Shown: positions 802 through 62,323 of the stretch, one piece after another
Layout: the number at the start of each line of letters is the position of its first letter
Numbering within the stretch: position 1 is the first letter of the stretch
Assembly (NCBI GenBank): GCA_046483845.1
Contig: JAWOCK010000098.1
Location: 655-64,654 of the forward strand
Length of the DNA: 64,000 nt
Direction: 5' to 3'
From: Thermoplasmatota archaeon
Lineage (GTDB): Archaea > Thermoplasmatota > Penumbrarchaeia > Penumbrarchaeales > Penumbrarchaeaceae
Notes under the pieces: model-generated
Databases searched by the model: none
What the model was told of the DNA's origin: nothing
Seen by the model: only the letters and a program-made list of their open reading frames with translations
Position numbers and translations under genes: made by a program

Positions 802-1284
802 TTGAAGCAGAACATTGATCCGTACGAGGTGCTCGGTGTAAGTGAGGAGTCATCGCCTGAAGAGATAAGGAAGGCCTACAAGAACCTGGCCCTTAAGCTG
901 CATCCGGACAAGATCGGGACCAATCCAAGGGCGTTGGAGCAGATGAAGCTGGTCAACGAGGCCTATGCCTTGCTAAAGAACCGACTGATAAAGAAGAGCT
1001 TCGATGATAGCGATGACTGGGAGAAGGAAGCATCCATAGAGCAGAGGGAGAAGGTTTGGAGGGAATACTCCAAACAGGTGGAGGACTACTACGAAAAGCT
1101 GCAGTCACACATCAAGGAGAAGTACAAGGACATCGATGTGCAGAAGGGGAGATTGGACGATATGGAGTCGGATCTGAGAAAGAGGGAAGAGAGATTGGTA
1201 AGGAAGGAGAAGCAGCTTGATGAGCTACTACTTCACATATCCAAGGCCTACTCGCTCATCGTGGATGTCTCGAAGGAGATATAA
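802..1284 (+). CDS. J-domain (DnaJ-like) protein with charged coiled-coil C-terminus
   Basis: The N-terminus (DPYEVLGVSEESSPEEIRKAYKNLALKLHPDK) is a canonical J-domain with an HPD motif. The rest is K/E-rich and predicted coiled-coil. Apparent TTG start. Confidence 0.75.
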   Translation: MKQNIDPYEVLGVSEESSPEEIRKAYKNLALKLHPDKIGTNPRALEQMKLVNEAYALLKNRLIKKSFDDSDDWEKEASIEQREKVWREYSKQVEDYYEKLQSHIKEKYKDIDVQKGRLDDMESDLRKREERLVRKEKQLDELLLHISKAYSLIVDVSKEI

Positions 1285-2696: not shown

Positions 2697-3593
2697 TCAG
2701 GTGTTCCTGGCGACCAGATAGATACCGATTAGGACCAAGGGACCGCCCAACAGGGCACCGGCACCGGGGAGCTCCTGAAGGATCAACACTGCAAGAACAG
2801 TGGATCCCACGGGCTCACCCAAAAGTGATACCGAAACCAGGGTGGGTGAGACGTATCTCAAGGTCCAATTGTATATTGTGTGGCCTGCCAGCATGGGGCC
2901 GATCGCCAGTGCAAAGAGGATCAGATATTCCACCGGATCATCCGAAAGGAACCTCACCCCCAGGATGAATATGGCGATCAGTAAAAAGAGCGCTGCCCAC
3001 AGGTAGACTATGAATGCATAGGTGGGGAGGGACATCTCTTTCCTGTACCGGGACCCGGCAAGTATGTAAATACCGAACATCACCGCGCCCCCAAGTGCCA
3101 ACAGGTTCCCCAACACCGTCCCCTTTGACATCGTCAGGTCACCTCCGATCAGCACAAAGGAGCCGATCAGTGCCAATACCATCCCCATTACTGCCCTGGC
3201 ACCGAGCTTCTCCTTGAAGAACCAGACGGAAATGGATGCGACGAACAGTGGATGAGTGGTCACAAGTAGCACCGAACTCGATACCTTGGTGAACTGAAAG
3301 GACCAGATCCAAAGGGCGAAATGGGAAGCCAGTGCAAGTCCCACCAGGGAAAGTTCGACGACCTTCTTCCTCGAGAGCACGCTCCTCTCCCTTCCGAAGG
3401 TCCATATGAAAAATGGGAGCAGGACCGCATCGGCAATAAGAAGTCTCCATGCGGAAATGGCCAGAGGATGGCTGCTTGATAGTTTTATCAATATGGCCGC
3501 TGTAGAGACCGCTGCCATTGCCGCAAATACCCAATATTTGGAGGAGCCCTTGTTGAAGAGCGCTCCAAGAGCTCCGTCTCCGCTGTCGACCAT
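2697..3593 (-). CDS. EamA/DMT-superfamily transporter (10-TM)
   Basis: Hydrophobic 298-aa protein with two repeated 5-TM halves typical of EamA domains. Confidence 0.7.
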   Translation of the reverse strand: MVDSGDGALGALFNKGSSKYWVFAAMAAVSTAAILIKLSSSHPLAISAWRLLIADAVLLPFFIWTFGRERSVLSRKKVVELSLVGLALASHFALWIWSFQFTKVSSSVLLVTTHPLFVASISVWFFKEKLGARAVMGMVLALIGSFVLIGGDLTMSKGTVLGNLLALGGAVMFGIYILAGSRYRKEMSLPTYAFIVYLWAALFLLIAIFILGVRFLSDDPVEYLILFALAIGPMLAGHTIYNWTLRYVSPTLVSVSLLGEPVGSTVLAVLILQELPGAGALLGGPLVLIGIYLVARNT

Positions 3594-3634: not shown

Positions 3635-4690
3635 GTGATAATGAGAGCCATGGACCAGGTGGGATACCCCTGGAGGATCAAGAGGGGGAGCAGCACCCTG
3701 GAGCTCACCCGACCCGTGGTGGTAGCTCCCATGGCGGGAGCCTATGATCCACCGTACAGGATGGTACTGCACCAGCTGGGCCTGGAGCTGTCGTTCACGG
3801 AGATGATAAGTGCAAGGGCGGTCCACGAGGGGTCGAACAGAACACGATCGATCTCCGATTGGGTGCCCGAAGAGGGATACTCCTGCGCCCAGATCTTCGG
3901 AGCGGACCCCATATATCTATCAACTGCCGCCCGCAGGATGGAGAGGATGGGGCACTCGATGATAGATCTCAATGCGGGATGCCCCAAGAGGAAGGTTACC
4001 GGAACTGGTGCAGGTTCAGCACTGCTCAGGGCACCATCCGTATTCCTCCGGTGCATCTGCTCCATCCTGGATTCTGTAAAGGTCCCCGTGGGAACGAAGA
4101 TAAGGTCAGGCTACAGCGAATATGATGATAACTTGCTCAGGGTGCTTGTAAAAGACCTACAGGGAGCAGGGATATCATATATCGCGGTCCACCCCCGCAC
4201 CGGTAAGCAGCAGTACACCGGAAAGGTTGACCGAAAGCTTATCGGAAAGGTCCGGTCATGGGTTGACATTCCCATCCTGGCCTCCGGGGATGTCAAGGGT
4301 CCTGAGGATGTGGAGCAATACCTGGACCTGGGTGCTTCCTCTGTCATGTTCGCAAGGGGAGCTCTTGGAGACCCGTTGTGGTTCGGAAGGACCCTGACCT
4401 GTTTGAACGGGGACAAGGAGTGGGTAAAAGACCCTGCCGGAGGTCAGGATGGATTGAAGGAACATCTCTCCCTGGTCAGGGACCATCTTGAAAACGCATG
4501 TGAATGGTACGGGGAGAAGAGAGGCTGTATAGAGTTCAGAAAGCATCTGGTCTGGTATATGAAGTGGTTCAGGAAGAGGGGTCCCTTCAGGGAAAGGGCA
4601 TATTCCATCAATACCAAGAACGATGCTCTTTCCCTTATATGCGACCTGGAGACGGAATGGGCCCGGGACCTTCAGATGAACCTTTATTAG
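3635..4690 (+). CDS. dus: tRNA-dihydrouridine synthase
   Basis: N-terminal VVVAPMAGAYDPPYR (FMN-binding Dus signature) and the conserved catalytic NAGCP motif (LNAGCPKRKV). TIM-barrel length. Confidence 0.8.
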   Translation: MIMRAMDQVGYPWRIKRGSSTLELTRPVVVAPMAGAYDPPYRMVLHQLGLELSFTEMISARAVHEGSNRTRSISDWVPEEGYSCAQIFGADPIYLSTAARRMERMGHSMIDLNAGCPKRKVTGTGAGSALLRAPSVFLRCICSILDSVKVPVGTKIRSGYSEYDDNLLRVLVKDLQGAGISYIAVHPRTGKQQYTGKVDRKLIGKVRSWVDIPILASGDVKGPEDVEQYLDLGASSVMFARGALGDPLWFGRTLTCLNGDKEWVKDPAGGQDGLKEHLSLVRDHLENACEWYGEKRGCIEFRKHLVWYMKWFRKRGPFRERAYSINTKNDALSLICDLETEWARDLQMNLY

Positions 4691-4740: not shown

Positions 4741-7700
4741 ATGTACATCGGCAAAGAAAAGGTTTTTCCAGCCTGCCTGTTGACGGCAGTTATGCTGCTG
4801 TCTCCCTTTCTGATCGTGACCATGAGCGCGGAGGAAACTGTTTCCGAAAAAGAGCCTGCAACACGGGCCGAAAAATATTACCTGTCGGAACAGGACATAT
4901 ATCTTCCGAATGCGGAGAACAAGGACAATCTCTACCTGATAGCTTGGGTCGAGAGTGCGGACACCTACATAGGGACCAATATCAACGGAGGCAATTATGA
5001 GTTCAACTTCAGGACCATCGCGAACTCCTTCCCGATAAAGATCGACGGCTCGACACAGAGCTCGGGCTCGAAGAGAAGGGTCATGGTGGAGCTCTTCACT
5101 GCAAAGGACTGTCCTTACTGTCCCGGAGCTGACGGGTCCGTTGATGCAGTGGCCGACGAGAGGTTCCCGGACGACATGACCTTGATCTCATGGCATGAGG
5201 GATTGGAACCCGGCGGGGACAACCTTCAGAACAAGTATTCCGAGGGCAGGAACAGCGGATACAGTGTCGTATCGATGCCCAAACCCACTGTTATATTCGA
5301 CGGGGAAATTGCGCTCGTCGGAGGGGATCCCAGTGCAAGCGCACCTGACCTTGTGAAAGCCTACAACACAGTTGTGGACTATGCAATGGTGGAGCCTCCC
5401 ATGGTATCGATCTCCGGGTCCGGGAGCGCGTCTGGCGATATGATAGGTTTCAACACAAGTTTTCAGATCATGAACCCGATGCCCAGGGGTAACTGGTCGT
5501 TCAAGGTGGCCGTCTGTGAGGACATCCAGACAGAACACCAGGGAGCCGAGATCAGGTTCATTCCGAAATACGTCAAGACCAGCAGGATAACCGGACTCCT
5601 GGAGGGGTTCCCTGAGGTACAGCTCCATGATCAGCAGATGTTCAGCGATATCGACAGGAACGATGTACAAGAAGAGCTAGAGGTCCTCTGGACGGCCAGC
5701 GATCCCGAGGATGGAAATGATGTTGAGATAGATATCCTGATCAGCAGGGACCATGAAGCGTGGGAGAACGTGGCCTCTGGTCTATCCAACACCGGATCTT
5801 ACATATGGGATACCCTGGACCCGAGGGCACCGGACGGTGGATATCGGCTCAGGGTACTGGCCAGGGATAGCGATGGGAACGAGGTCCTCTCCGGGGAGGT
5901 CTCCACCTTCACTTTGGACAATAGGGACCCTCCCGAGGGAGAGATCACGGTCCCGGGAAAAGCCGGGGCATCGCTGGGAGGACGTATTACCTTCAAGTGG
6001 AACTCCTCTGATGATGAAGATGAGGTATCACAGCTGAAGGAACGGGTTTCGATCTCGGATGATGCGGGTACCACCTGGAGGGTTCTCACCACGGATCCCA
6101 GCGGCTGGGAGACCAACGACGGTAAGTTCATGATGAACTCACTGGTATATCCTGACCTTGACACATACGTGCTGAAGGTGGAGATCAAGGACAGGGATGA
6201 TATGATCACACCTTTGATATCTCCAAGGTTCGAGATATACAACAACGATGCTCCGGAGCCTACCATAATATCGCCTGCTTTCAAAGAGCAGATCACGGGG
6301 ACCCTTGATATCGGATGGAGTGCCCATGATGAAGAGGATGTTGCCTGGGGGATGTTCGAGAACATGACAGGCAACTTCTCCGTAAGGAAGTTGGGAAAAG
6401 ATGAATGGGTCAAGCTGTTCATCGGTCATCTCGATGAGGAGATGGAGAACAAGACATTCGATACCTCCGTGCTTCAGGGGGATGGAGATTACGTTCTCCG
6501 GTTCACGGTCACCGACTCCAGGGGGAGATCCGCGTTCGTTGAACGAGAATTCAGTGTCTACGATCCCGACCCTCCTGTCTTCACATCCCCTATAAAGGTA
6601 CCGTCGACAGAGGACGATCACCGAAATCGGATGTTCAACATCTCCTGGGAAGCAGAGGATGACGATGCCGGTGAGACGATAAGGTATACCCTGGAGATCT
6701 CCCCGGTTTCAGAGAACAACTGGACCTCCATTGCAGAGAAGATAACGGATACCGAGTACAGCATCAACCTTTCCGGTTACCAGGAGGGAAGGTACAAGCT
6801 GAGGATCACGGCTGTCGATTCTAGCCCATACAAGCTCAGCTCGGAGATAGAGTATGGTCCCTTCTATTGGAACGCGCCTGACAGGCCCGATCTGGAGTTC
6901 CTCTCACCCTATCCAGGATCCGATGAGGTCATCGAGGATGAAACGGGCCTTGCGAACCTCACCGGTTTCATGACGTATCCCGTAATCTGGAGCGGCTCCG
7001 ATCCCGACGGTGACAACATCACTTATTCATTGTATTACAAAAAGCAGAGCGACGAGGAATGGACATTGGTGGAAGATGGCATGGAAAAGAGCTCGGTCAT
7101 GTGGAACCTCTCCGGGTTCACCGACGGAAAGTACCTTCTCAGACTGGTGGGGGTGGACTCCTCACCCCAGAAGCTGAGTTCTGAGATCATTGCGGGACCA
7201 TATATCGTCGATGTTCCCTGGGACCCGCCAGTTGAAGATGACGATATCGAAGACGATGACGCAATAGATGACAATGATACAGTTGACAAAGGTATGGATC
7301 TGACCTTCATATTGATCTCGGCCACGGTGATCATATTATTAGCCATATTGGTGGCTGGCCTGGTGATCTTCCTCATGTCCCGGATCAAGGGTAAACAAAA
7401 AGAGACCTCTCCACCTGTGGTCCCCACCGAATCAGATGTGGACCTCTCCTCCATTCCGGGGTTCGAAAGACAGATGCCAACCAACATGCCACCGCAGCAG
7501 ATGATGCAGCCTCAAGACCCTGTACAACAGACGCCCGCTCGACCAATGCAGGAGCAGTCTCCGGTATCCGGGACCACTCAGGCACCCGAGATCCCACCTA
7601 GCGATAAAGGTGCGGCCCCGCCGGTTATGGAGCAGACGCCTGAAGAGGTACCGACACCCACCCCGCAGGTTCCTGAGAGTGGGGAGCAGGGCCTTCAGGA

Positions 7701-7803
7701 TACAGAACAGCAAGAGGAACCCCCTGGGCAGGATACCGATAAGGTTTCCGAGGAGGAAGAAAAAGGACCCATGGGCCCGCCGCCTTCGATACCTGACATC
7801 TAG
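4741..7803 (+). CDS. Large exported, membrane-anchored protein: N-terminal thioredoxin/glutaredoxin-like CPYC domain, tandem acidic Ig/Fn3-like beta-sandwich repeats, C-terminal TM and long Pro/Gln-rich cytoplasmic tail
   Basis: Start moved to MYIGKEK, followed by a signal/TM segment (LLTAVMLLSPFLIV). VMVELFTAKDCPYCPGADG is a thioredoxin-fold beta-strand plus CPYC active site. At least four ~100-aa repeats share W-x-[SA]-x-D-[DE]-D and Y-x-L/R-V-x-[AV]-D-S motifs. C-terminal TM (ILISATVIILLAILVAGLVIFL) is followed by a ~150-aa P/Q/E-rich tail. Confidence 0.7.
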   Translation: MYIGKEKVFPACLLTAVMLLSPFLIVTMSAEETVSEKEPATRAEKYYLSEQDIYLPNAENKDNLYLIAWVESADTYIGTNINGGNYEFNFRTIANSFPIKIDGSTQSSGSKRRVMVELFTAKDCPYCPGADGSVDAVADERFPDDMTLISWHEGLEPGGDNLQNKYSEGRNSGYSVVSMPKPTVIFDGEIALVGGDPSASAPDLVKAYNTVVDYAMVEPPMVSISGSGSASGDMIGFNTSFQIMNPMPRGNWSFKVAVCEDIQTEHQGAEIRFIPKYVKTSRITGLLEGFPEVQLHDQQMFSDIDRNDVQEELEVLWTASDPEDGNDVEIDILISRDHEAWENVASGLSNTGSYIWDTLDPRAPDGGYRLRVLARDSDGNEVLSGEVSTFTLDNRDPPEGEITVPGKAGASLGGRITFKWNSSDDEDEVSQLKERVSISDDAGTTWRVLTTDPSGWETNDGKFMMNSLVYPDLDTYVLKVEIKDRDDMITPLISPRFEIYNNDAPEPTIISPAFKEQITGTLDIGWSAHDEEDVAWGMFENMTGNFSVRKLGKDEWVKLFIGHLDEEMENKTFDTSVLQGDGDYVLRFTVTDSRGRSAFVEREFSVYDPDPPVFTSPIKVPSTEDDHRNRMFNISWEAEDDDAGETIRYTLEISPVSENNWTSIAEKITDTEYSINLSGYQEGRYKLRITAVDSSPYKLSSEIEYGPFYWNAPDRPDLEFLSPYPGSDEVIEDETGLANLTGFMTYPVIWSGSDPDGDNITYSLYYKKQSDEEWTLVEDGMEKSSVMWNLSGFTDGKYLLRLVGVDSSPQKLSSEIIAGPYIVDVPWDPPVEDDDIEDDDAIDDNDTVDKGMDLTFILISATVIILLAILVAGLVIFLMSRIKGKQKETSPPVVPTESDVDLSSIPGFERQMPTNMPPQQMMQPQDPVQQTPARPMQEQSPVSGTTQAPEIPPSDKGAAPPVMEQTPEEVPTPTPQVPESGEQGLQDTEQQEEPPGQDTDKVSEEEEKGPMGPPPSIPDI

Positions 7804-10538
7804 ATGCTGAAGAAACCGCCGATGTACCTGTATCCCCAGAAGGCATACCAGATAATGAACGACCCGGCGAATACCAGCAGCAGTCCCGATATCCTCTTTA
7901 CCTTGTCGGTGGAGGAGATGAACCTCTCCATCACCCTGCTCCCTGAGGCTGCAAGATATGAAAAGATGATCATCATTGTGGCTATTGCAAAGGTATAGGC
8001 CATGAACACGATGATACCCCCCAACCAACCCATTGCGGTGGAGGAACCGAGTATTATCACAGCGATGAAGGCCGGGGCCATACAGCTTGATGCGGCAGCC
8101 CCGTAACCGAACCCGTATGCGAAGAGCCCTCCGGACCCGGAGGGATCCGGCTCCCTGTTACCCCGGACCATCATGATCAGATATGTGAAAGGTCTCTTTA
8201 TCAGGTCAATGAACTTCTCCAGGAACTGGTCCTTACCGATCAGGGTTACCACACCCAACAACAGCAGTATGGCCCCTATCACAGGCATCAGCGTGATCAG
8301 CCAGGACTTCACCACCGCTCCCAGTATGGCCACCAGAACGGCTATGATAAGAAAGAATGCGATGATCCCCAGGGCCGCGAACACGCCTCCCCTGATCGGG
8401 TTCACCTTCCTGCGTTCTCCGGCCTGGCTCGATATGTAATATGACAGGTATCCGGGCAGCATCGGGAACGAACACGGTGAGAAGAAGGTAAGCACCCCGA
8501 AGGTCACTGCCGAGAGGGTGATGACTATCAAACCACTCTTTTGCGCGATACCTGAGATCCCGTAGGTTCCTTCATGCGCCTCGGTGATGGCAGTCCTGAC
8601 CTCGTCCTTATCTATGTATCCCGTATGCTGATATGCGATATCCCCGTTGGGAGCAACGATCACCATCTTCGGGGTCTCCAAGGCGTCGAACTTCTCTATG
8701 AAGGAAGTGTCCCGTCCTATGGACCACTCGGCCCCGTATTCGTTCTGGAAATCCCCCATCATATCCATGCTGTCATCTTTGTCCACTGAGACCGATAGGA
8801 ATTCCACCTCGCTCCCGTAGGTGTCCTTGGCCCATTGGTAAACCTCCACCACATCGGGCATTTCCTTTTCGCAGACCGAACAGGTGGTGTACATTATATC
8901 TATAACCAGGACTCTATCCTGATAATCCGCCGGTGTGTGAATGCTGCCTTTGGTGTCCGTCACCGAGAAATCGGGGACAGTTGTAACCTCCTTGCTCAAT
9001 AGGCTGGAGCCTCCGATGAAGGACACTATTAGGCCGATCATGATGACCATTGCCATGGTCCCCTTGGAGGAGAAGAACCGGAAGATGCCCCCCTCCCTTC
9101 TCTTCGAGATGAAATAGGCCAGAGGTCCCAATAGAATGATCAGAATTCCCATGATAATGATGGCGCCCCCTCCGGAAAGGTCCATGGAGGAAGAGTCCCC
9201 CGACCTCGAGTCGGACCCGTCTGCAAGATGGAACACCGGGGAACTTGACTGGGCAAGCTCGTCATCGTTGGCCAACACCTGGACGAAGAGCGGGCCCCCT
9301 TCATATCCTTCGATTACCGCCGTCCCCACGGGATCGGAATAAGCATAACACGTCCCGGTATCGTCGCATAGTTCTTCTCCTTGGAGTTCCAGCTTCACTG
9401 GTGTCCATTGAGTTGAATTCTCCGCTTTGGTGTTGTAGAACAGGGTGGAGCTTGCAATTCCACCCTCATCCTCGAAGGTAACGGTCACGATGTCTTCGGA
9501 CACTCGTGCATCGGTGACCCTCGGCGGCTGGTTATCCCTGTCGTAGGCAGTGGAATCCGAGGTGGCCGACTGGAGGGCCCTCGGTGTACCGGCCCTGGTA
9601 TTGCCGTCCGAGGCGCTTGCGACCGAATCTGTGTCCTGGGTATCGAACACCGCCGCCACGGCATACATGTTCTGAGGTCTGACGGGGACACCATCTTCGG
9701 GATTTATTTCGGGTATGGGGAAATCTCCCGAGAACTGGTAGGTCTCACCGTTCCTGAGCGTGAACCTCTCATCCTCCACAGCATATCCCCTGAAAACGGC
9801 GTCGTTCTCTACATATTGGTCATAGACAAGAGAATAGGCTTCCGCTCCGTCCTCGACCATGAAAACATAAAGTGATCCCTGAAGGGCGGGATTTGTCACC
9901 AGCTTTGCATTTCCGTCGTAGGTGACGCTTCCCACGACAGTGAACTCACCATCATCGTATACCTGGTCGATCTCCAGCCATAGATACGGGAAGCTCCACG
10001 TTAATCTCTCCATCGGTCTGTATGGTCTATTATTGTACCTCTGCTTGGACTCCTCTATGGCAAGCTGTATGTTGGACCTGTCGATGTCCCTTGTGGAGGT
10101 GGAGGCGCCACCGAGTTCGAAATAGCCTCCATCGAATTCCAGGTCCGGGGTGCCTGCAAGTCCAGGCTGGTAATGTTCCATCCTCTCCTCTGACTCCTCG
10201 GTCCTCAATGCGTCCACATTGCCCCCGTTGAGCTCGTGGAAGATCACAGTAGTGTGTGGGACGGACCCGTCATCCTTTGCCTCAAGATAAGTATCGTGGA
10301 CCGCTTTTTCCGGGCTGTCCGACGTGGGGCTGTCACCCATGCACGACGGGCAGGACAGGCCTGTGAAGAACTCCAGAAGAGGCCTATGTATCCATCCGGA
10401 CGGGGGCTGTGCCGCCATGCCATCGCCGGACCCTATCTGTGCCTCAGATGATCCTGTCTGGACCAGAGGCCCCAAGGAAATGAGGCCTGCTAGTACCAAC
10501 ATGATGACAATATACAGATCGAACTTCATGGCTGACAC
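7800..10538 (-). CDS. Fusion protein: exported CxxC thioredoxin-like N-domain plus large beta-rich domain, two TM helices, TlpA/ResA-like periplasmic thioredoxin domain, and a CcdA/DsbD-family transmembrane thiol-disulfide electron-transfer domain
   Basis: Signal peptide, then LLEFFTGLSCPSCMGD (CxxC). TlpA-like block DFSVTDTKGSIHTPADYQDRVLVIDIMYTTCSVCEKEMPDV…TPKMVIVAPNGDIAY. C-terminal polytopic domain carries the two CcdA/DsbD signature cysteines (TFGVLTFFSPCSFPMLPGY and GFGYGAAASSCMAPAF). Overlaps the preceding gene by 4 nt, tail to tail. Confidence 0.75.
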   Translation of the reverse strand: MSAMKFDLYIVIMLVLAGLISLGPLVQTGSSEAQIGSGDGMAAQPPSGWIHRPLLEFFTGLSCPSCMGDSPTSDSPEKAVHDTYLEAKDDGSVPHTTVIFHELNGGNVDALRTEESEERMEHYQPGLAGTPDLEFDGGYFELGGASTSTRDIDRSNIQLAIEESKQRYNNRPYRPMERLTWSFPYLWLEIDQVYDDGEFTVVGSVTYDGNAKLVTNPALQGSLYVFMVEDGAEAYSLVYDQYVENDAVFRGYAVEDERFTLRNGETYQFSGDFPIPEINPEDGVPVRPQNMYAVAAVFDTQDTDSVASASDGNTRAGTPRALQSATSDSTAYDRDNQPPRVTDARVSEDIVTVTFEDEGGIASSTLFYNTKAENSTQWTPVKLELQGEELCDDTGTCYAYSDPVGTAVIEGYEGGPLFVQVLANDDELAQSSSPVFHLADGSDSRSGDSSSMDLSGGGAIIIMGILIILLGPLAYFISKRREGGIFRFFSSKGTMAMVIMIGLIVSFIGGSSLLSKEVTTVPDFSVTDTKGSIHTPADYQDRVLVIDIMYTTCSVCEKEMPDVVEVYQWAKDTYGSEVEFLSVSVDKDDSMDMMGDFQNEYGAEWSIGRDTSFIEKFDALETPKMVIVAPNGDIAYQHTGYIDKDEVRTAITEAHEGTYGISGIAQKSGLIVITLSAVTFGVLTFFSPCSFPMLPGYLSYYISSQAGERRKVNPIRGGVFAALGIIAFFLIIAVLVAILGAVVKSWLITLMPVIGAILLLLGVVTLIGKDQFLEKFIDLIKRPFTYLIMMVRGNREPDPSGSGGLFAYGFGYGAAASSCMAPAFIAVIILGSSTAMGWLGGIIVFMAYTFAIATMMIIFSYLAASGSRVMERFISSTDKVKRISGLLLVFAGSFIIWYAFWGYRYIGGFFSI

Positions 10539-10658
10539 CCGGAGTTCAGAATACCTCCTCTACTGTCCGAAAACCTATGGTTATTTACTCTTTACCGCGA
10601 ATATGGTAAAACTCCACTGCCCATCACGTTTTAATAATCGACGATTGATGGACCCGCA

Positions 10659-11726
10659 ATGGAGCTCGATCTCTTCGATTACGATCTGCCCCGCGAGATG
10701 ATAGCGCAGTCCAAATCGGACCCGAGGGATTCCTCCAGGTTGTTCTATATGGATGCCAGAGGTGAAAGGACCATACACCGGCATCATGTGTTCAGGGATA
10801 TCGTGGGACTTCTGGACAAGGGAGATATACTGGTCCTGAACAGATCGAGGGTGATCCCCGCCAGGATACCGGTGAGGAAAGTGACAGGCGGCAGGGCCGA
10901 GGTACTGCTCCTGAAAGGATCGGATGACGGGTCCTGGGAAGCATTGGTTAGGGGAAGGAACATAAAGAAAGATGAGCGGCTGCTCTGCGATGATGAGGAT
11001 CTTGAGATATTGATGAAGGAAAGGATGCATGAAGGAAGGTGCAGGATAGCGTTCCGGCGAAGGAATGGTCCGATGGACCATTCAGCGGCCATGGAATGGC
11101 TTCGTCGGTGGGGGCTCATGCCTACACCCCCGTACATCAAAAGGATACTGGACGATCCCGAGGAGTACCAGACCGTCTACGGGGACATGGAAGGTTCCGT
11201 GGCCGCTCCCACGGCAGGACTGCATTTCACAGAAGGCCTTCTGGAAAGACTGAGGGAAAAAGGTGTCAGGATCGTCCACATCATCCTCCACGTAGGACCC
11301 GGGACCTTCGCACCGGTGAGGTCCAAAGATATCAATGACCATATCATGGAAGAAGAAGAGTTCCTGATCCCCGAGAGCGTCAAGGATACGGTCAGGGATG
11401 CTGTCGAACAAAGGGATAGTAACGGGGCTAACAGGATATGGGCCGTGGGGACCACGACGATGAGGTCGCTGGAGTCAGCATTCGATGAGCAGGGTGAATG
11501 CATCCGGGAAAAAGGGAAGACCGACCTTTTCATCACCCCCGGATACCAGTTCAAGCTCCCCTACAAGGGTTTCATAACCAACTTCCACCTGCCAAGGTCA
11601 ACCCCCCTCATGCTGGTCTCGGCGTTCCACGACCGCGAGAGCATACTGGCGGCATACCATGAAGCGATGAGGATGGGTTATCGGTTCTATTCGCTTGGTG
11701 ACTCCATGATGATAAGGAGAGGTTGA
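10659..11726 (+). CDS. queA: S-adenosylmethionine:tRNA ribosyltransferase-isomerase (queuosine biosynthesis)
   Basis: Matches bacterial QueA blocks along the full length: LPREMIAQ…RDSSRL, VLNRSRVIPARI, YQTVY…SVAAPTAGLHFT, HVGPGTF, AVGTTTMRSLES, ITNFHLPRSTPLMLVSAF, YRFYSLGDSM. Confidence 0.9.
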   Translation: MELDLFDYDLPREMIAQSKSDPRDSSRLFYMDARGERTIHRHHVFRDIVGLLDKGDILVLNRSRVIPARIPVRKVTGGRAEVLLLKGSDDGSWEALVRGRNIKKDERLLCDDEDLEILMKERMHEGRCRIAFRRRNGPMDHSAAMEWLRRWGLMPTPPYIKRILDDPEEYQTVYGDMEGSVAAPTAGLHFTEGLLERLREKGVRIVHIILHVGPGTFAPVRSKDINDHIMEEEEFLIPESVKDTVRDAVEQRDSNGANRIWAVGTTTMRSLESAFDEQGECIREKGKTDLFITPGYQFKLPYKGFITNFHLPRSTPLMLVSAFHDRESILAAYHEAMRMGYRFYSLGDSMMIRRG

Positions 11727-11727
11727 A

Positions 11728-12876
11728 TTGGCACATTTCCATCTTGAGCTGGGAGAGAGAATGGGACCAAGGGCGGGTAAGCTCGAGCTTCCCTCCGGGT
11801 GCAAGGTCGAGACGCCGCTCTTCATGCCGGTGGCGACCAAGCTCTCGGTCAAGACACTGGAGCCCGAAGAGGTGAAGCGCACCGGAACGACCACCTTGAT
11901 AACCAACGGTTTCCTTACCTCTCTCGAACCGGGGAGCAGCGAGGTGAGGTCCATGGGCGGACTGCACAGGATGATGGGGTGGAGCGGGGGGATCTTCTCC
12001 GACTCCGGTGGTTTCCAGTTCATCAGGAGGGGCTTCGATGCAAAGGTGGAGGATAAAGGGGTTCGTCTCCGCTCACCCTACTCCGGAGCCCCCGTATGCT
12101 TGACCCCTGAAAGTGTGGTGGACATGCATGTAATGCATGGTGTAGATGTAGGCATGGTACTGGACCACTGCCCCCCATACTCCTCCACCGAAGAGGGTAT
12201 CCTCGATTCCGCCCGCAGGACAGTCCACTGGGCCAGAAGGTCCAGGGACCACATGGAGGGCGAAGAGCTCAGGGAGCTTTTACCGGACTGCGTTTCGGAG
12301 CTGCCGTTACTCTATGCCATAACCCAGGGGGGTACTTTCCTTGATATCAGAAGAAAGAACACGGAAAAGCTTGTGGAGCTGGACCTCCCTGGTTACGGAA
12401 TAGGGGGGCTCTCCATAGGGGAAGGAAAGAAGGAAATGTTCAATGCCCTGGAGGCATCCACTTCCTATCTTCCGGCGGATAGACCCAGATATTTCATGGG
12501 GATGGGGGAGCCGACCGACCTTATAAGGTCGGTCCTGGCGGGTGTTGATCTATTCGATTCCGTGTTCCCCACCCGCAACGCCAGGCACAGGTCCGTTTTC
12601 GTAGGCAGCGGGAAGGAGAACATCAGGGCCTCCGGGTGGAAGGGGAACCATGGGCCGATAATGGAGGGGTGCGGATGCCACACCTGCAATAACTTCTCCA
12701 GGGCCTTCGTTCATCATCTCTTCAAGACCATGGAACCCCTGGGACCGAAACTAGCCACGGTCCACAACGTCCACTATATGCAGGACATGATGAAAGGGAT
12801 CAGGACCTTGATCCAGGAAGAAGATATGGAGGGCTCTCCGGATGATATATTGTCCAGGATATTCCAGGTGCGTTGA
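11728..12876 (+). CDS. tgt: Queuine/preQ1 tRNA-ribosyltransferase, bacterial-size (382 aa, no PUA domain)
   Basis: TGT blocks ETPLFMPVATK, DSGGFQF and the Zn site CGCHTCNNFSRAFVHHL. Starts 1 nt after the queA stop (apparent TTG start), so operonic. Confidence 0.85.
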   Translation: MAHFHLELGERMGPRAGKLELPSGCKVETPLFMPVATKLSVKTLEPEEVKRTGTTTLITNGFLTSLEPGSSEVRSMGGLHRMMGWSGGIFSDSGGFQFIRRGFDAKVEDKGVRLRSPYSGAPVCLTPESVVDMHVMHGVDVGMVLDHCPPYSSTEEGILDSARRTVHWARRSRDHMEGEELRELLPDCVSELPLLYAITQGGTFLDIRRKNTEKLVELDLPGYGIGGLSIGEGKKEMFNALEASTSYLPADRPRYFMGMGEPTDLIRSVLAGVDLFDSVFPTRNARHRSVFVGSGKENIRASGWKGNHGPIMEGCGCHTCNNFSRAFVHHLFKTMEPLGPKLATVHNVHYMQDMMKGIRTLIQEEDMEGSPDDILSRIFQVR

Positions 12877-12967
12877 ACCGCATTTGAAAGTGGGAACAAT
12901 ACACCTATGGTTGAATGAGAGTTCGACAAAAAGGGTATTTATCCCGTTCTTTTGCTCTATTTGACGA

Positions 12968-12986
12968 AAAATGTTTATATATCATC
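12968..12986 (+). promoter_or_regulatory. Putative archaeal BRE/TATA promoter for the downstream surface-protein gene
   Basis: cgaaaaaTGTTTATATAtc, an A-rich BRE-like stretch followed by a TTTATATA TATA box about 80 nt upstream of the ATG at 13064. Coordinates approximate. Confidence 0.4.
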
Positions 12987-13063
12987 TAATTTCATCTGCA
13001 GTTTGGGGTTACATGGTCAGTATGTATCTGTAATCCGAGCAAATAGCACAAAGAGGTGTTCAA

Positions 13064-15661
13064 ATGATGGGAAGGAAAAAGATGATTGGTAGTATGGCAT
13101 CATCGTTCATTGCGCTGATGCTGACTATGTCTGCTGTATTGCTGCTGTTTCCGATACCGGATGCGGTAGCTCAAACCGGAGAATACGATGATCCGATAAT
13201 TGACCTGAATATGGTAAATAACATGGAGGTAAGACCAGCTCATGCTTTCAATACCTCTTCGCAAAATATAATAATCAGCTGGGAATGGCCGGAGATGTGG
13301 GCAATGAACACTGGACCTTACGAGGTTACCATCGAGATGTATGATAGCGAATCGATGTTGCCTATTCGCTGGCCGATATTCCATTGGCATGTCGAATCCG
13401 GAACCCCCGCACCAGAATCATATGAATGGGAATTGAACAATTCGCTTCAGCCATCGGACAGCTATGTTTTCAACCTTACATCTATGGCCAACAACAGCGA
13501 TACTGGTACTTATTATATGGACTGGGACGAGGCTCCTTTCGAGATAATGGATGGAACACCAATGATAGAGGATATTAGCGCCGATCCACTTGTTGTGGAC
13601 AACAGCGGAACGGGCGTAATCAATATCACATTCTCGTTCAACAGACATTTCGACCATTTGGACAGAGGGAATTTCACAATGGGGCTGTTCAACTACAATA
13701 CGATGGAATGGATAGAATTGGATGTAGATGAGCCTTCGCCGGAAAACATATCCTCCGGTCCTTACTCATCAACAGCCTGGACCCACGTAACTATTCCCTT
13801 TGACACTCCTACCGGAGAATATTATCTCCATCTCAATGCAGTGGATGTATGGGAATACGGGGAAACGTGGAATGAAAGCATATTCAGGGTCATCTGGAGA
13901 GAGGTCCCACCTGTGATGGTTAATGATACCATACATATGAACGAGGATGAATTCGCATTGGTGGACCTCAACGATCATTTCACGGATCCAAACGGACAGG
14001 ATCTGACATATTACATCAATATGTCCGCCGTTGAAAATATAACCATAGTCTGGGTGAATAATCATACCATCAATATCACAGCTCCAATGGATTGGAACGG
14101 CGAACAGGACTTTGGGATCGCCGTTACGGATGGGATCGATCTGCCGGGCCACAATGCGACCTTCACCATGAACGTTATCGTCCATCCCATGCCTGACGAT
14201 CTGCGCCCCACCGAGGATCGGATCGTTATGATCAACGAGGTATTGATGGAAACATACTTCGATCCTTTGGAATTCTTCTACCATCCCGACGGACCCGTGA
14301 ACCTCACTGTATCCATCGGATACGAGGAGGTCGTCGTGAACGATACCTCCAACGAGACCGAGAAACAGCCTATCTGGCACTTCGAGGAAGGGAATATCTC
14401 GGTCGAGATGAACGAGACCCAGCAGAACATGTCCAAGGCCATGCTCCTTCAGGATTTCGAGGAGGGAAGCTGGGAGTTCCCAATAGCAGCCTGGATAGAC
14501 GGCGAATGGGTGATGAACGGGACCGCATTTGTTGAGGTGGACCCCGTCAACGACGTACCCATGCTGGCCGTGGAGGGCATTACCTTCTACTATGATGAGA
14601 TCTTCACTGCCAACCTGGCCGATCTCTTCTACGATCCGGATTCCACCAATCTCAGCTTCATTGTGGACACCACCGCCGAGAACCTGGTGATAGATTACAA
14701 CGAGACCACTCACGATATCGCCATATCCGTTGAGAACAACTGGACCGGAAACTCCGAGTTCGAGGTCAACGTCTCGGACGGCGAGGACTACAACGTGGTC
14801 ATGATACCAGTCGAGGTCCAGATGCACACCTACACCCTCAGTGGTGTAGTGGATTACGAGGATAACGAGACACACGGACTGGAAGGCGTCTTCGTGACCC
14901 TCATGGTCGGTGAGACAGAGGTGCCCGTTGACAACGTCACCGGCGAATATTCCGTGGAACTCGTGGAAGGCGAATACTCCGTATCCATAACCCTCGGAAC
15001 CGATATGATCTATGATGAAGAGGCGGGACAGAGCGGATACATTGCACCCGAACTGGACAATATGACCATGGATATGGATAAGACCCTCGATATTTCCATC
15101 GAGTGGATGGAATATACGGAGAGCGCAGAAGAAGCTACCTGGGAGGACATCGATTTCGATAGTGCTGTCAAGGAGGAAGAGGATGACACCTTGACCTTCG
15201 CAATCCCGGTTAAGAACGAAAGCAGGACCGGCTACGGTGACCTGAAGGTCTATCTCATCATATACGATGATGAAGAAGAGTGGGAGTTCAACTTCACCTG
15301 GATAGAGAGCGACATGGAATATACCCTGGAGATCTCCGAGGATCAGATGGATGATCTTCCCGAGGGGAAGCTCAAATACAAGTACTCCGACAAGGCAGGT
15401 AACGAGACCTCCGAGATGGAATATACCTTCAGGGACGAGAAGCAGGACGCTTCACTGGTGACGGTCATCGTATTGATCGTCCTCATCATACTGGTCCTCA
15501 TCGCCCTGGTCTTCATCATGAGGAAGCCCTCGGAGGAGTTCGACGAGGAAGAAGAAGAGGAAGAAGAAGGGGAGCGCGTCTGCCCGTCCTGCGGTGAGAC
15601 CATCGCCGATGAGGAAGCAGTGGAGTGCCCCTATTGCGGCGAGTCCCTGGAAGAAGAGTGA
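13064..15661 (+). CDS. Large acidic exported surface (glyco)protein with cadherin/Ig-like repeats, C-terminal TM, poly-Glu linker and a cytoplasmic C-terminal zinc ribbon
   Basis: Signal peptide (IGSMASSFIALMLTMSAVLLLFPIP). Very high D/E content with numerous N-x-S/T sequons and repeat-like blocks (…VDLNDHFTDPNGQDLTYY…, …LADLFYDPDSTNLSF…). TM (LVTVIVLIVLIILVLIALVFIM), then EEEEEEEEG and CPSCGETIADEEAVECPYCGE. Confidence 0.7.
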   Translation: MMGRKKMIGSMASSFIALMLTMSAVLLLFPIPDAVAQTGEYDDPIIDLNMVNNMEVRPAHAFNTSSQNIIISWEWPEMWAMNTGPYEVTIEMYDSESMLPIRWPIFHWHVESGTPAPESYEWELNNSLQPSDSYVFNLTSMANNSDTGTYYMDWDEAPFEIMDGTPMIEDISADPLVVDNSGTGVINITFSFNRHFDHLDRGNFTMGLFNYNTMEWIELDVDEPSPENISSGPYSSTAWTHVTIPFDTPTGEYYLHLNAVDVWEYGETWNESIFRVIWREVPPVMVNDTIHMNEDEFALVDLNDHFTDPNGQDLTYYINMSAVENITIVWVNNHTINITAPMDWNGEQDFGIAVTDGIDLPGHNATFTMNVIVHPMPDDLRPTEDRIVMINEVLMETYFDPLEFFYHPDGPVNLTVSIGYEEVVVNDTSNETEKQPIWHFEEGNISVEMNETQQNMSKAMLLQDFEEGSWEFPIAAWIDGEWVMNGTAFVEVDPVNDVPMLAVEGITFYYDEIFTANLADLFYDPDSTNLSFIVDTTAENLVIDYNETTHDIAISVENNWTGNSEFEVNVSDGEDYNVVMIPVEVQMHTYTLSGVVDYEDNETHGLEGVFVTLMVGETEVPVDNVTGEYSVELVEGEYSVSITLGTDMIYDEEAGQSGYIAPELDNMTMDMDKTLDISIEWMEYTESAEEATWEDIDFDSAVKEEEDDTLTFAIPVKNESRTGYGDLKVYLIIYDDEEEWEFNFTWIESDMEYTLEISEDQMDDLPEGKLKYKYSDKAGNETSEMEYTFRDEKQDASLVTVIVLIVLIILVLIALVFIMRKPSEEFDEEEEEEEEGERVCPSCGETIADEEAVECPYCGESLEEE

Positions 15662-20779: not shown

Positions 20780-23700
20780 TCACTCGAAAACGGCACCGCA
20801 GTGCGGACAGATCGGAGCGGATACCGGTATCAAGGCCCCGCACTCGAAACATTCGGCGAGCTCCTCTTCTTCCTCCTCCACCGGAACCGGAGCCGCATCC
20901 TCGCCAGGAGCCTCCTCCTCGATCTCCTCGGAGCCCTCCTCTTCGAGTTCCTCGAGCTCTTCCTCCTCTTCTTCGAACTCTTCATCCTCCCGACCTTCTT
21001 TCTCCTCTTCCTCCGAAGGTCCCTCCTTCTGTAACGGTTCTACATCGGCCTTTACAGGTCTATGGCAGGCCGGGCACTCCGTGGCACCGGTCGGTATCAG
21101 CTCGCCGCACTCACATTCCAACTCATCCGAGAACTCGACACCGCAATGCGGGCATATATCCGCATCGAGCTGGACCAGGCCCCCACAGTTGGAACATTTT
21201 GCCATGTCCTTTGTCTTGTATTTCTTATACACGAAGTAGCCGATAGCACCACCGATGAGAAGCAGGACCAGTATGATGATCAATATCCACACCCATAGAC
21301 GGCTGGGTTCATCCCCTTCCTGGATCTGGACAATGACCGTCGCTTCATTGTTGTCCTTGTCGGATTCATAATAGCTATTCTCATCATCTATCTTCACCCT
21401 GAACAACTTGACATCACCCACAGAGCCTTCTGGTTCGACCCTGAAGGTGACAAGAACTTCTTGATATGGAAGAAGGTCTACGGTCCTCAGATAGCTCTCA
21501 CCTTCAGCAAGCGAGGCGGGTTCATCGAACTCAACCTGGAGATCATGAAAGGAGAAGTTGCCGTTGTTGGTGACCTTGAACGTAACTTCATACTCTTTGT
21601 CCTCTTTCATATCGAACTGCCCGGTCTCTATATTGTACACATCACTTTCCCTCAGAAGTTCGATGGATAGGTCGGGTGCCTCCATCACCTCCAATTGCAG
21701 GGTCAATACATTGTTCCCTTCATCGAACTCCCGTATACTGTTCTCGGGGTCGACCATTATCCTCAACATGTTCATCCCCAGATCCTTCAGGTTCCAGTGG
21801 CCCCTTATCACATCCGTTCCGTTGGTTTCGAGGAAAGGTATCCTGATTATCTTCTCCGTCCAGCTATCGGTATCATTATATGCCTTGAAAAGGACCGTCG
21901 TATTGCTGGCAGCCTTACCACCTATATTGGTCAGGTTCAGCTCCAGGGAGATATTCATACCTAGGTAGGCCATTGGTTCATATTCCAGATCGATGTCGAT
22001 ACCAGGATATCCGGTGGACAACATCAGAGAGCTGTTGGATAGTAAAAGCTCAGGAACATCCTGTATGTCAAATATTTCAACCTGATGGTGAATGCGGTTG
22101 TTGGAGGTGGTCTGCTCCTCCCCTTCCAGCAGGTCCACCTCAACCAGCAATGTCCTGATACCCTTGGGATAATCAGCGATCCAGGGCCTCTCGACGAACA
22201 TGCTGGACCTCCCGGGCAAGGTCCCTGCAAGGTAGGTCATTCCTATTCCCAGCGGGATCGGGTTGGGATCGTTCTCGAACTCCGCATTGAAGAACCTTAT
22301 CCTGAAGGTAGGGGCAGTGGTATCTCCCGTGTTCTCAACGGTTGTGTTTATGGTAAGACGGTTTCCCACTCCCACACTGTTCACCTCGAAATCACCCTGA
22401 TAGAGAGTGATGTTGGTGACCTCCAGGTCGGGCAGTGTCCGGACATACATCTTCCAGAACACCTTGTTGTTCTCTTCATCGCTCTCATCAATGGTATCGA
22501 CCAGGTCCAGGATGACATATATTTCATGATCACCACCGGTTGTGGGGGTCCATGTGACATTTGCCCATCTGAAACCCCCTGCCGGGACAATGTTGATGGA
22601 AACGGAGGGCTGTGTCTCCTTCCAGGAGATTATCTTTCCACCTTCCAGCGGATCTCCGTCGTAGAACCTTATGAAAACGTTCCTTGCAGGAGTTTCGCCG
22701 GAGTTCCTTACAGATGCACTGATGGTGACCTCTTCCCCGATATCAATATTGCGATCCGGTGAGAAATAGAGATCGTTCGTACCCATGTACAGATCAGGTT
22801 TGGAGATCACCCTGATATCGATGGATCGGAGATTGTTATCCTCGTCGGGTTCTTTTATGATATCCCGGGGGTCGGCAACTATGAACATGGTCCTGAACCC
22901 GCTTTCTTCCTCTGCCCTCCGGGATTCCCATGTTATGGAGATGTTCTTTTCCTGACCCGGTAGAAGATCAACATTCACTGTGCTGATGACATTCGTATCA
23001 GAGTCAAGCGCGAACTCCACCTTTGCATTATGAGCCATTGTCTTTCCTATGTTCTTTACAGTGGCCCAGAAGGTGGCGTTCTTGCCTTCTGTTATTACAC
23101 TGGGAGAGACACCAATGTTCGAAGTGAAGGTCAGATCCGGTGGGGTGTCAACCCTTATCGGGAAGATCACCTCGTTGTTCGCCTCGTTCTGTTCCCTTAC
23201 ATCATCATTTAAGTCAATTGCAACGATCAGTTCATGTACACCGGTCGGCGGTCCCGCATACCAGATGAACTCCAGTTCGATATCATCGCCAGGGGATAGC
23301 CCGGGTACCGAACGGTCAAGGTCTATCTTATTTTCCTCGGTCCTTTCCCCGTCATAAACGCTCACCATGAAAGCTCCTGCAGGCAGGTCTCCCGTGTTCT
23401 CTATGGTGAACGTCACCACCGCCGTGGTGTTCACCGTTACCGGGTCCGGTACATTGATGCCGAAGGAGTTCAGGACAAGCCCGATATCCGGAAGCGAAAG
23501 TACCTCTATGGTCCGGACATCGATCGAGTTTATGGGTGACCTGTCGTACTTGGATACCACGGATCCCACCACGTTCAATGTTCCAAGGGCCATGGGCGTC
23601 AAGTTCACGGTCTTCTCCACGGTCTCGCCGGGCGGTATATAATCGAACATCAAAAAGGAGCGGATCTCGCCTTCTCCTGAAGCATCGGTCCATGTCATGT

Positions 23701-56774: not shown

Positions 56775-56830
56775 GGAGCCTTTATATGTTTGCAATTATT
56801 GGATAATTAGAACTAAAATGGTCCCGGCTC
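56775..56830. repeat. Direct repeat copy 2, overlapping the 3' end of tRNA-Tyr
   Basis: See copy 1. This copy is contiguous with the intact tRNA gene. Confidence 0.6.
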
Positions 56831-56934
56831 CCGGATTTGAACCGGGGGTCTAAGGATGTCTGCGGGGGGGCGGGGAGGAGCTCCCCGGGATCCAACTACA
56901 GTCCCCCGCTCTAGCCAGACTGAGCCAAGCCGGG
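56819..56934 (-). tRNA. tRNA-Tyr: tRNA-Tyr (anticodon GUA) with a 38-nt canonical-position intron (37/38) and encoded CCA
   Basis: Folded by hand on the minus strand. Acceptor CCCGGCT/AGCCGGG (7 bp), U8, D-arm GCTC-AGTCTGGCTA-GAGC (G18G19). Anticodon stem GGGGA/TCCTT with loop C-U-GUA-G|intron|A. Intron TTGGATCCCGGGGAGCTCCTCCCCGCCCCCCCGCAGAC. Variable loop AGACC, T-arm CCCGG-TTCAAAT-CCGGG, discriminator A, then CCA. Coordinates ±1-2. Confidence 0.8.
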
Positions 56935-57046
56935 TATGTTTGGTATCAGCCCTATTCAATCCTGATATATAAATGTTCGAGGAGTGATAACATATGAGAA
57001 TTTGACCAATAGGGTTTTCTATATTGGTACATTTAACAAGTTGGCT

Positions 57047-61668: not shown

Positions 61669-62304
61669 ATGTCGGCCCTCGATGAGAAGAGGGAGAAAAA
61701 TAAAAAAAGGATCGCTGTTCTGGCATCCGGAAGGGGGACCGATTTCCAGGCAATAGTTGACGCATCCGAATCCGGGGAGGTTCACCTGAACATCGCCCTG
61801 CTGATCTGCAACAACAGCGACGCGTACGTCATAGATCGGGCAAAGGAACATTCCATACCTTATGTGGTGATCGACCACAGGAACAGGAAGCGCCAGGAAT
61901 TCGATAAGGAGATCGATGATCTACTGAGGAAGGAGAACATCGACCTCGTCGTGCTCGCGGGTTTCATGAGGATACTTTCCAGGTGGTTCGTGGTGCGTTG
62001 GAGGGACCGGATCATCAATATCCATCCCTCCTTGCTGCCGTCATTCCCGGGGGCGCACGCACACAGGGACGCATTGGAATATGGTGTCAAGGTAACCGGT
62101 CTTACTATCCATTTCGTGGATGAGGAGGTCGACCACGGTCCCATTATATTCCAATACCCCGTTATGATATTCGATGATGATGACGAGGAGAGCCTTTCGG
62201 GAAGAATACTGAAAGAGGAGCACAAATGGTACCCACGGATCATCCAATGGATCGTCGATGGAAGGGTCAAAAGGGACGGAAGAAAGGTAAGGGTCGATAA
62301 ATGA
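61669..62304 (+). CDS. purN: Phosphoribosylglycinamide formyltransferase
   Basis: [17 protein letters not shown], …[44 protein letters not shown]… (folate-binding / catalytic His-Asp region). Start chosen to give a canonical length of about 210 aa. Confidence 0.8.
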
Positions 62305-62323
62305 ACGAAAGCGGGGAAACAGG

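Follow-up and report, generated by a model that had tools for sequence, protein, structure and literature searches.

In the textbook view of tRNA modification, queuosine is a feature of Bacteria and Eukarya and archaeosine one of Archaea, where the transglycosylase arcTGT acts on G15 and inserts preQ0. In bacteria, the queuosine enzymes QueA and TGT are encoded side by side, in the order queA-tgt-yajC-secDF in E. coli and ruvAB-queA-tgt-yajC in Firmicutes. A paper from 2026 still keeps queuosine with Bacteria and Eukarya and archaeosine with Archaea (PMC13329287). Castelle et al., 2021 (PMC8204110) describe, by genomic inference, bacterial queuosine pathways, either complete or partial, with co-localized QueA, QueH-like and Tgt, in 34 archaeal genomes, which include 12 DPANN and some Methanosarcinales. 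Here we analyzed a 64,000-nt stretch of DNA from a Thermoplasmatota archaeon (contig JAWOCK010000098.1 of assembly GCA_046483845.1, positions 655 to 64,654; hereafter the window), in which a queA gene is directly followed by tgt. The initial annotation of this DNA had assumed that archaea have no QueA, a premise outdated by what Castelle et al., 2021 (PMC8204110) describe and by the names in NCBI, whose pipeline already labels these Thermoplasmatota proteins QueA and Tgt. We consider it probable that the two genes form a functional operon of bacterial ancestry, long fixed in a Thermoplasmatota lineage (clade A), whose products would introduce preQ1 at G34 and convert it to epoxyqueuosine.

The QueA protein of the window matched the Pfam family Queuosine_synth (PF02547) over residues 4-352 of 355 with 356 bits (E=1.8e-106). 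It also exceeded the cut-offs of two NCBIfam equivalog models, NF001140 (371.2 bits; cut-off 324) and TIGR00113 (324.6 bits; cut-off 267.45), as expected from the initial annotation, which had regarded queA as clearly bacterial-type. The closest solved structure is that of T. maritima QueA (1vky), which aligned end to end (residues 2-352) with 292 bits. The window protein preserves each of the 42 columns found invariant among 122 QueA sequences. An identical protein (P0001), named QueA by PGAP, is found in NCBI in a metagenome-assembled genome (MAG) of a Thermoplasmatota archaeon (GCA_964459425.1). By these matches, queA is an intact gene of the bacterial type, and the predicted activity of its product is the S-adenosylmethionine (SAM)-dependent conversion of preQ1-tRNA to epoxyqueuosine-tRNA.

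The product of tgt contains PF01702 as its sole Pfam domain (371 bits, E=9.3e-111, residues 14-368), and thus no PUA domain. The protein passed the equivalog cut-off for bacterial Tgt(34) (TIGR00430, 345.2 bits; cut-off 306.75) and stayed far under that of the archaeosine TgtA model (TIGR00432, 100.2 bits; cut-off 350). Among solved structures, the TGTs of E. coli, T. maritima and Z. mobilis scored 283-272 bits, human QTRT1 229 bits and P. horikoshii arcTGT (1iq8) 74.5 bits. When the residues of Z. mobilis TGT were mapped onto the window protein, the catalytic Asp102 and the catalytic nucleophile Asp280 corresponded to D92 and D277, the substrate residue Asp156 to D146, Cys158 to C148, Met260 to M257, and the tRNA contacts Arg286 and Arg289 to R283 and R286. 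The zinc site is present as C315-x-C317-x-x-C320...H346. All mapped catalytic, zinc, tRNA-binding and preQ1-pocket residues are unchanged in 42 of the 42 clade-A members. A TGT of bacterial size with a CxCxxC...H site and without a PUA domain, as proposed at the outset, is therefore what the TIGR00430 score, the single PF01702 domain and the four zinc ligands describe.

The substrate pocket of TGTs carries the signature GG[LS][AS]G in queuine-salvaging enzymes and GGLAVG in preQ1-inserting enzymes (PMC10723273). On this basis, a preQ1-type pocket was defined by a Cys158 equivalent together with GGL[AS][VI]GE, the residue at position 233 being bulky. In the window protein, the segment equivalent to Gly229-Glu235 of Z. 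mobilis TGT reads G226-G-L-S-I-G-E232, and this GGLSIGE motif places a bulky Ile230 at the Val233-equivalent position, like in T. maritima TGT. Ile230 is conserved in all 42 clade-A members. By this signature, the pocket is of the preQ1 type and not of the queuine-salvage type, which is consistent with the presence of QueA, as QueA acts on preQ1-tRNA. The enzyme is predicted to replace G34 by preQ1 in tRNAs that have GUN anticodons, with indirect support from the conserved tRNA contacts R283 and R286 and from a tRNA-Tyr(GUA) with U33-G34-U35 encoded in the window.

Two other identities were considered for the TGT and rejected. The eukaryotic QTRT1 and queuine-salvaging bacterial TGTs such as that of C. 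trachomatis have a homologous catalytic subunit and the same G34 target but carry Gly at the Val233-equivalent position instead of Ile230; moreover, the presence of QueA argues for insertion of preQ1 rather than queuine. The archaeosine enzyme arcTGT/TgtA shares the TIM-barrel TGT superfamily and the zinc site, and the 7-deazaguanine base that it uses is supplied by the same preQ0 pool. However, it has C-terminal/PUA domains that are absent from the window TGT, and the scores of the window protein against TIGR00432 and 1iq8 are low. The match is closer with the proteins of the bacterial queA-tgt operon, which share 40-50% identity, the catalytic Asp, the zinc site, the preQ1-type pocket and the order of the two genes with the window pair. 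Unlike the bacterial operon, the window pair is linked neither to yajC/secDF nor to ruv, its neighbors are archaeal or lineage-specific (a DsbD-like fusion and a cadherin-like surface protein), the host is archaeal, and the expression signals look archaeal, with a TATA-like box and no sigma-70 signal. A search of the window at the gathering thresholds of Rfam showed no preQ1 riboswitch.

The locus is repeated in six further Thermoplasmatota contigs, which were assembled independently in different projects. Their common gene order is (DnaJ)-(Peptidase_C11)-EamA-Dus-large secreted protein-DsbD/redoxin fusion(-)-queA-tgt-cadherin-like protein-(GrpE). QueA identity is 65% in L001 and L002, 56% in L013/L014, 55% in L022, where an archaeal S13-S4-S11-RpoD cluster lies 8 kb away, and 52% in L021, which represents a basal sub-clade. 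Both the synteny and the 1-nt junction between queA and tgt are common to L001, L002, L013, L021 and L022. Between the orthologues of L001 and L002, the ratio of nonsynonymous to synonymous substitution rates (dN/dS) was 0.10 for queA and 0.07 for tgt, compared with 0.07 for the neighboring EamA and DsbD-like genes. Clade A comprises about 43 cluster representatives of QueA and 42 of TGT in the database. Given the clade-wide synteny, the conserved junction and dN/dS values around 0.1, queA-tgt is an old, selected and vertically inherited trait of this Thermoplasmatota lineage.

The base composition of the pair is ordinary for its surroundings. GC content, GC content at third codon positions (GC3) and codon usage of queA and tgt fall inside the range of the other 30 window genes, and their distances in relative synonymous codon usage (0.093 for queA and 0.085 for tgt) compare with a window mean of 0.079 ± 0.027. 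The ordinary composition together with the clade-wide synteny led us to reject a recent transfer, and the dN/dS values together with the invariant active sites to reject a pseudogene or relic. The initial annotation had proposed horizontal acquisition by an archaeon. The core of this proposal holds, because the proteins pass the cut-offs of bacterial-type hidden Markov models and carry the active-site signature, lie inside bacterial diversity and keep the bacterial gene order; the trait is old and clade-wide, and the acquisition was thus not an isolated or recent event.

The surroundings of the pair in the window are archaeal, as had been recognized initially: besides the 3′ part of a TFB gene at the 5′ end, there are genes for PCNA, PAN, PurP, RPA and DtdA and an intron-containing tRNA-Tyr, to which an Elp3-like enzyme is added here. 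An HTH_10 regulator and an MCM-WH protein are also encoded. The tRNA-Tyr(GUA) gene was overlooked by the default ARAGORN run but recovered by Rfam and by the intron mode of ARAGORN. As one of the four GUN tRNAs, it contains the U33-G34-U35 element and is a predicted G34 substrate of TGT, encoded outside the operon. The positions of these and the other features are listed in Table 1.

Table 1. Positions of the queA-tgt pair, its putative signals and other features in the window
Feature	Position	Strand	Description
TFB (C-terminus)	1-~296		5′ end of the window
DnaJ	802-1284	+	bacterial-type
EamA/DMT transporter	2697-3593	-	
Dihydrouridine synthase (Dus)	3635-4690	+	adjoins EamA
DsbD/redoxin fusion	7800-10538	-	912 aa; directly 5′ of queA
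TTTTAATAAT	10629-10638	+	TATA-box-like element ~25 nt 5′ of queA ATG, read by eye from the sequence
queA	10659-11726	+	355 aa, ATG start; bacterial-type QueA (tRNA preQ1(34) SAM ribosyltransferase-isomerase)
AAGGAGAGG	11714-11722	+	Shine-Dalgarno-like motif within queA 3′ end, 5 nt 5′ of tgt TTG
queA stop codon	11724-11726	+	TGA
queA-tgt gap	11727	+	single base A
tgt	11728-12876	+	382 aa, TTG start; bacterial-type tRNA-guanine(34) transglycosylase, no PUA domain
Giant surface/secreted protein (predicted)	20780-26497	-	
Giant surface/secreted protein (predicted)	26803-32928	+	
Giant surface/secreted protein (predicted)	34176-39533	-	
Spurious open reading frame	56813-57274	-	153 aa; 5′ part overlapped by tRNA-Tyr gene
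tRNA-Tyr(GUA)	56819-56934	-	38-nt intron at canonical 37/38, encoded CCA; Rfam RF00005 50.1 bits at 56822-56934; ARAGORN intron mode
UvrB	~62300-64000	+	bacterial-type; 3′ end of the window

The 1-nt gap between queA and tgt noted in the initial annotation agrees with the coordinates of the two reading frames, and the Shine-Dalgarno-like motif AAGGAGAGG inside queA fits the translational coupling suggested there. The arrangement AAGGAG(G/A)G(G/A)-TTGA-N-start is kept in L001, L002 and L013, so the translation of tgt appears to be coupled to that of queA through this internal motif. Relatives carry ATG at the codon homologous to the TTG start of tgt, after the same motif. The N-terminus of the window TGT is alignable with T. 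maritima TGT from residue 3, and the NCBI gene call (L010) also gives 382 aa. For these three reasons, the TTG start is favored over Met12, which was picked by one other gene caller and yields 371 aa (L011).

Upstream of queA, an A/T-rich box is found 20-40 nt from the gene in L001, L002 and L013. In the window, TTTTAATAAT is a putative archaeal promoter element, from which a leaderless or near-leaderless queA mRNA would be made. A scan of the region for sigma-70 promoters and intrinsic terminators returned nothing exceeding the shuffled expectation.

From these features, the following route can be proposed. The pair would be expressed from the TATA-like box, probably as a leaderless mRNA with tgt translationally coupled to queA. 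TGT, a zinc enzyme with a preQ1-type pocket, would swap G34 in the U33-G34-U35 context of tRNA-Asp, tRNA-Asn, tRNA-His and tRNA-Tyr for preQ1 (7-aminomethyl-7-deazaguanine). QueA would then move the ribosyl moiety of SAM onto the aminomethyl group of preQ1 and isomerize it, giving epoxyqueuosine-tRNA with its SAM-derived epoxycyclopentanediol, and a QueH or QueG encoded elsewhere would complete queuosine. The preQ1 may come from the archaeal preQ0 pathway, which otherwise serves archaeosine, via a QueF, or from salvage. As the intron of tRNA-Tyr abuts the anticodon loop, this tRNA is presumably modified after splicing, by analogy with eukaryotic tRNA-Tyr. Within this proposal, the analysis itself shows what the genes are, that their active sites are intact and carry the preQ1-type signature, that they are under purifying selection and vertically inherited across the clade, and that the host is archaeal. 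What the enzymes do, which tRNAs they act on, where preQ1 comes from, what the end product is and which promoter is used are inferences from the sequence and from the established bacterial pathway.

Several points weigh against the proposal. We know of no queuosine detected so far in archaeal tRNA, and no report of it was found in the literature searched. The promoter and the leaderless mRNA are putative assignments made by eye, and the direction and number of transfers are read from neighbor-joining trees with weak deep support (see below). The 64-kb window was scanned over every open reading frame of at least 150 aa, several smaller ones and both ends, with Pfam and, for QueH, tblastn; neither QueF, QueG, QueH, QueC/D/E or any other 7-deazaguanine gene nor a known precursor transporter (QPTR/QueT) was found in it. 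Among the best 120 QueH matches in the database, which comprise clade-B archaeal and bacterial QueH, none was assignable to clade A, and a complete queuosine pathway in clade A is unproven. Two follow-up look-ups led to a further clade-B-like archaeal locus and to a Firmicutes locus. An archaeal QueH probe (from L015) likewise had no tblastn match in the window or in the clade-A loci examined. Clade A could have a divergent QueH, use QueG, or end at epoxyqueuosine.

These absences would be accounted for if the pair were active in a truncated or salvage pathway, lacking QueF and/or QueG/QueH, with preQ1 scavenged from neighboring bacteria and/or epoxyqueuosine as the end product. The EamA/DMT transporter gene might supply the import function. 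It lies ~7 kb 5′ of queA in all clade-A loci inspected (L001, L002, L010, L013, L021 and L022), and its family, PF00892, is one of the highest-placed untested candidates for the bacterial transport of queuosine precursors (PMC11130926, Table 1). The assignment of this neighbor as an importer of preQ1 or another queuosine precursor is speculative, as the gene is three genes off, is encoded on the other strand and comes from a huge family with many functions. The absences themselves are weak evidence, since they cover 64 kb out of perhaps ~2 Mb of genome and the best 120 QueH matches only, and the related clade B does have QueH near tgt. We thus regard a truncated or salvage pathway as unlikely, though it is the alternative that fares best.

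In clade B, which shows a Thermoplasmata-like context, the QueH gene (PF02677) is located two genes from tgt, at 12728-13264 (-) in L015 and 6264-6860 (+) in L018. The order queA-tgt, OB-fold Ssb-like gene, QueH and aromatic amino-acid lyase is the same in the two assemblies, whose QueHs are 58% identical. Since clade B has QueH beside queA-tgt, TGT, QueA and QueH, which carry out the three tRNA-bound steps, co-occur in related archaea, in line with the description of DPANN by Castelle et al., 2021 (PMC8204110).

To place the two proteins, neighbor-joining trees were built from MAFFT alignments with a Kimura-type correction, and they are indicative only. The QueA tree contained 122 sequences over 338 columns and the TGT tree 128 sequences, with the support of splits counted over 60 replicates. 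The midpoint root of the QueA tree fell on the clade-A branch and was uninformative; the tree was re-rooted on distant bacterial QueAs, and its deep nodes were weakly supported. Clade A, which includes the window, clade B, which includes the complete Thermoplasmata genome CP070808 and L015, and clade C ("Ca. Saliniplasma") each had 100% bootstrap support. The QueA of clade A is 47% identical to those of clades B and C and 46% to those of Aquificota and Chloroflexota, and all of these groups are nearer to each other than to a distant bacterial QueA group (35-41%). In the TGT tree, clade A was recovered in 60/60 replicates with a protein from a "Euryarchaeota archaeon" MAG as its sister (52/60), clades B and C were placed elsewhere, and a Eubacterium sequence was interleaved.

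An import of queA-tgt from bacteria is the most parsimonious reading of the origin, because the proteins are placed inside bacterial diversity, the gene order is bacterial, nearly all bacteria have QueA and its occurrence among archaea is patchy. The tgt gene directly follows queA in the bacterial loci L003, L005-L009 and L020, and the same order occurs in all three archaeal clades. The alternative is that QueA and TGT(34) are ancestral in archaea, descending vertically from an early ancestor and lost in most lineages. The three archaeal QueA clades do group in the neighbor-joining point estimate, the split between labeled archaeal and bacterial sequences appeared in 31/60 replicates, and clade A branches deep, some of its members sharing as little as 51% identity. 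However, the archaeal clades share 47% identity with each other, which is no closer than their 46-51% with Aquificota or Chloroflexota, and every one of them lies within the bacterial divergence range of 35-54%. The split between the domains was recovered in 0/60 replicates of the TGT tree. In view of this interleaving, the patchy archaeal distribution and a gene order identical to that of the bacterial operon, we consider an ancestral origin very unlikely. The initial annotation had called for phylogenies to test whether QueA and TGT nest within bacteria: the sequences do lie within bacterial diversity and those of TGT are interleaved, but the deep nodes of the trees are weakly supported.

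In the complete 2.28-Mb Thermoplasmata genome CP070808.1 (L012), queA (10001-11038) stands alone without an adjoining tgt, so the linkage of queA and tgt is not universal among archaeal carriers.

The pair might also have acquired another function, acting on a different tRNA position, on another RNA or on DNA, or using preQ0. TGT-family paralogues have been recruited elsewhere for DNA modification, as in the case of DpdA, and preQ0 is abundant in archaea. Such a change of function is highly improbable, given that every residue defining the bacterial G34/preQ1 enzyme is invariant, that the equivalog cut-off is passed, that the tight coupling of queA and tgt is the canonical tRNA arrangement, and that the reaction of QueA depends on the aminomethyl group of preQ1. 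Finally, a bacterial, chimeric or misbinned contig, a doubt already raised in the initial annotation and for which the bacterial affinity of QueA and TGT is the sole argument, can practically be dismissed, since archaeal genes lie on both flanks of the same contig, the locus was assembled independently in at least six MAGs or metagenomes of different projects with its synteny intact, and the codon usage of queA-tgt matches that of the neighboring genes.

Other genes of the locus were inspected as well. The dihydrouridine synthase gene is syntenic with queA-tgt across clade A; its best match was the bacterial DusB model TIGR00737 (250 bits, under the cut-off of 293), and it may be a second bacterial-type tRNA-modification enzyme of the locus. 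The DsbD/redoxin fusion is kept in all clade-A loci; its N-terminal part is a large extracellular region, and it also has a thioredoxin-fold domain resembling redoxin/SCO1 and a transmembrane domain of the DsbD type. This protein is probably unrelated to queuosine. The bacterial-type genes nearby, DnaJ and UvrB in the window and GrpE downstream in the relatives L013, L021 and L022, fit a lineage with many bacterial imports. The three giant predicted surface or secreted proteins span 1785-2041 aa; one has CARDB repeats and C-terminal zinc ribbons, one has lamin-tail domains and a PLD-like nuclease or phospholipase domain, and one is a subtilase with PKD/Big domains.

Codon usage was calculated for 32 window genes (GC3 0.64). 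U-ending codons account for 56% at His (CAT), 57% at Asp (GAT), 50% at Tyr (TAT) and 35% at Asn (AAT), compared with 14% at Phe (TTT), 30% at Cys (TGT) and 34% at Ser (AGT). For such a GC3, the codons read by the queuosine-target tRNAs end in U unusually often. This is compatible with a relaxation by Q34 of the preference for C-ending codons, but many genomes show the same pattern.

The Thermoplasmatota queA-tgt pair is a lineage-level instance of a phenomenon already published, with canonical enzymes. As these enzymes are canonical and already annotated automatically, the gain lies in distribution and evolution and not in mechanism. The archaea of Castelle et al., 2021 (PMC8204110) show the same co-localized bacterial-type QueA and Tgt, likewise inferred from genomes alone, but that paper highlights DPANN and Methanosarcinales with a co-localized QueH, whereas the Thermoplasmatota lineage described here is free-standing and its locus is fixed and devoid of QueH. 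No paper tying queuosine to Thermoplasmatota in substance was found in our literature search. A stable and selected queA-tgt across this lineage extends the 2021 report and suggests that wobble queuosine has been adopted by archaea repeatedly. The archaeal tgt and queA genes are candidates for heterologous tests in E. coli mutants.

On balance, we lean toward the view that the whole of this vertically evolving Thermoplasmatota lineage modifies the wobble position of Asp, Asn, His and Tyr tRNAs to queuosine or epoxyqueuosine, beside archaeosine at G15, with both modifications sharing one preQ0 pool. This poses the question of how two TGTs, one for G15 and preQ0 and the other for G34 and preQ1, share a single 7-deazaguanine pool. 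If the view is correct, preQ1 might be salvaged through the conserved EamA transporter, and the U-rich usage of His, Asp and Tyr codons may be a reflection of the modification. Queuosine would then not be limited to Bacteria and Eukarya, and free-living archaea would possess a naturalized bacterial decoding trait.

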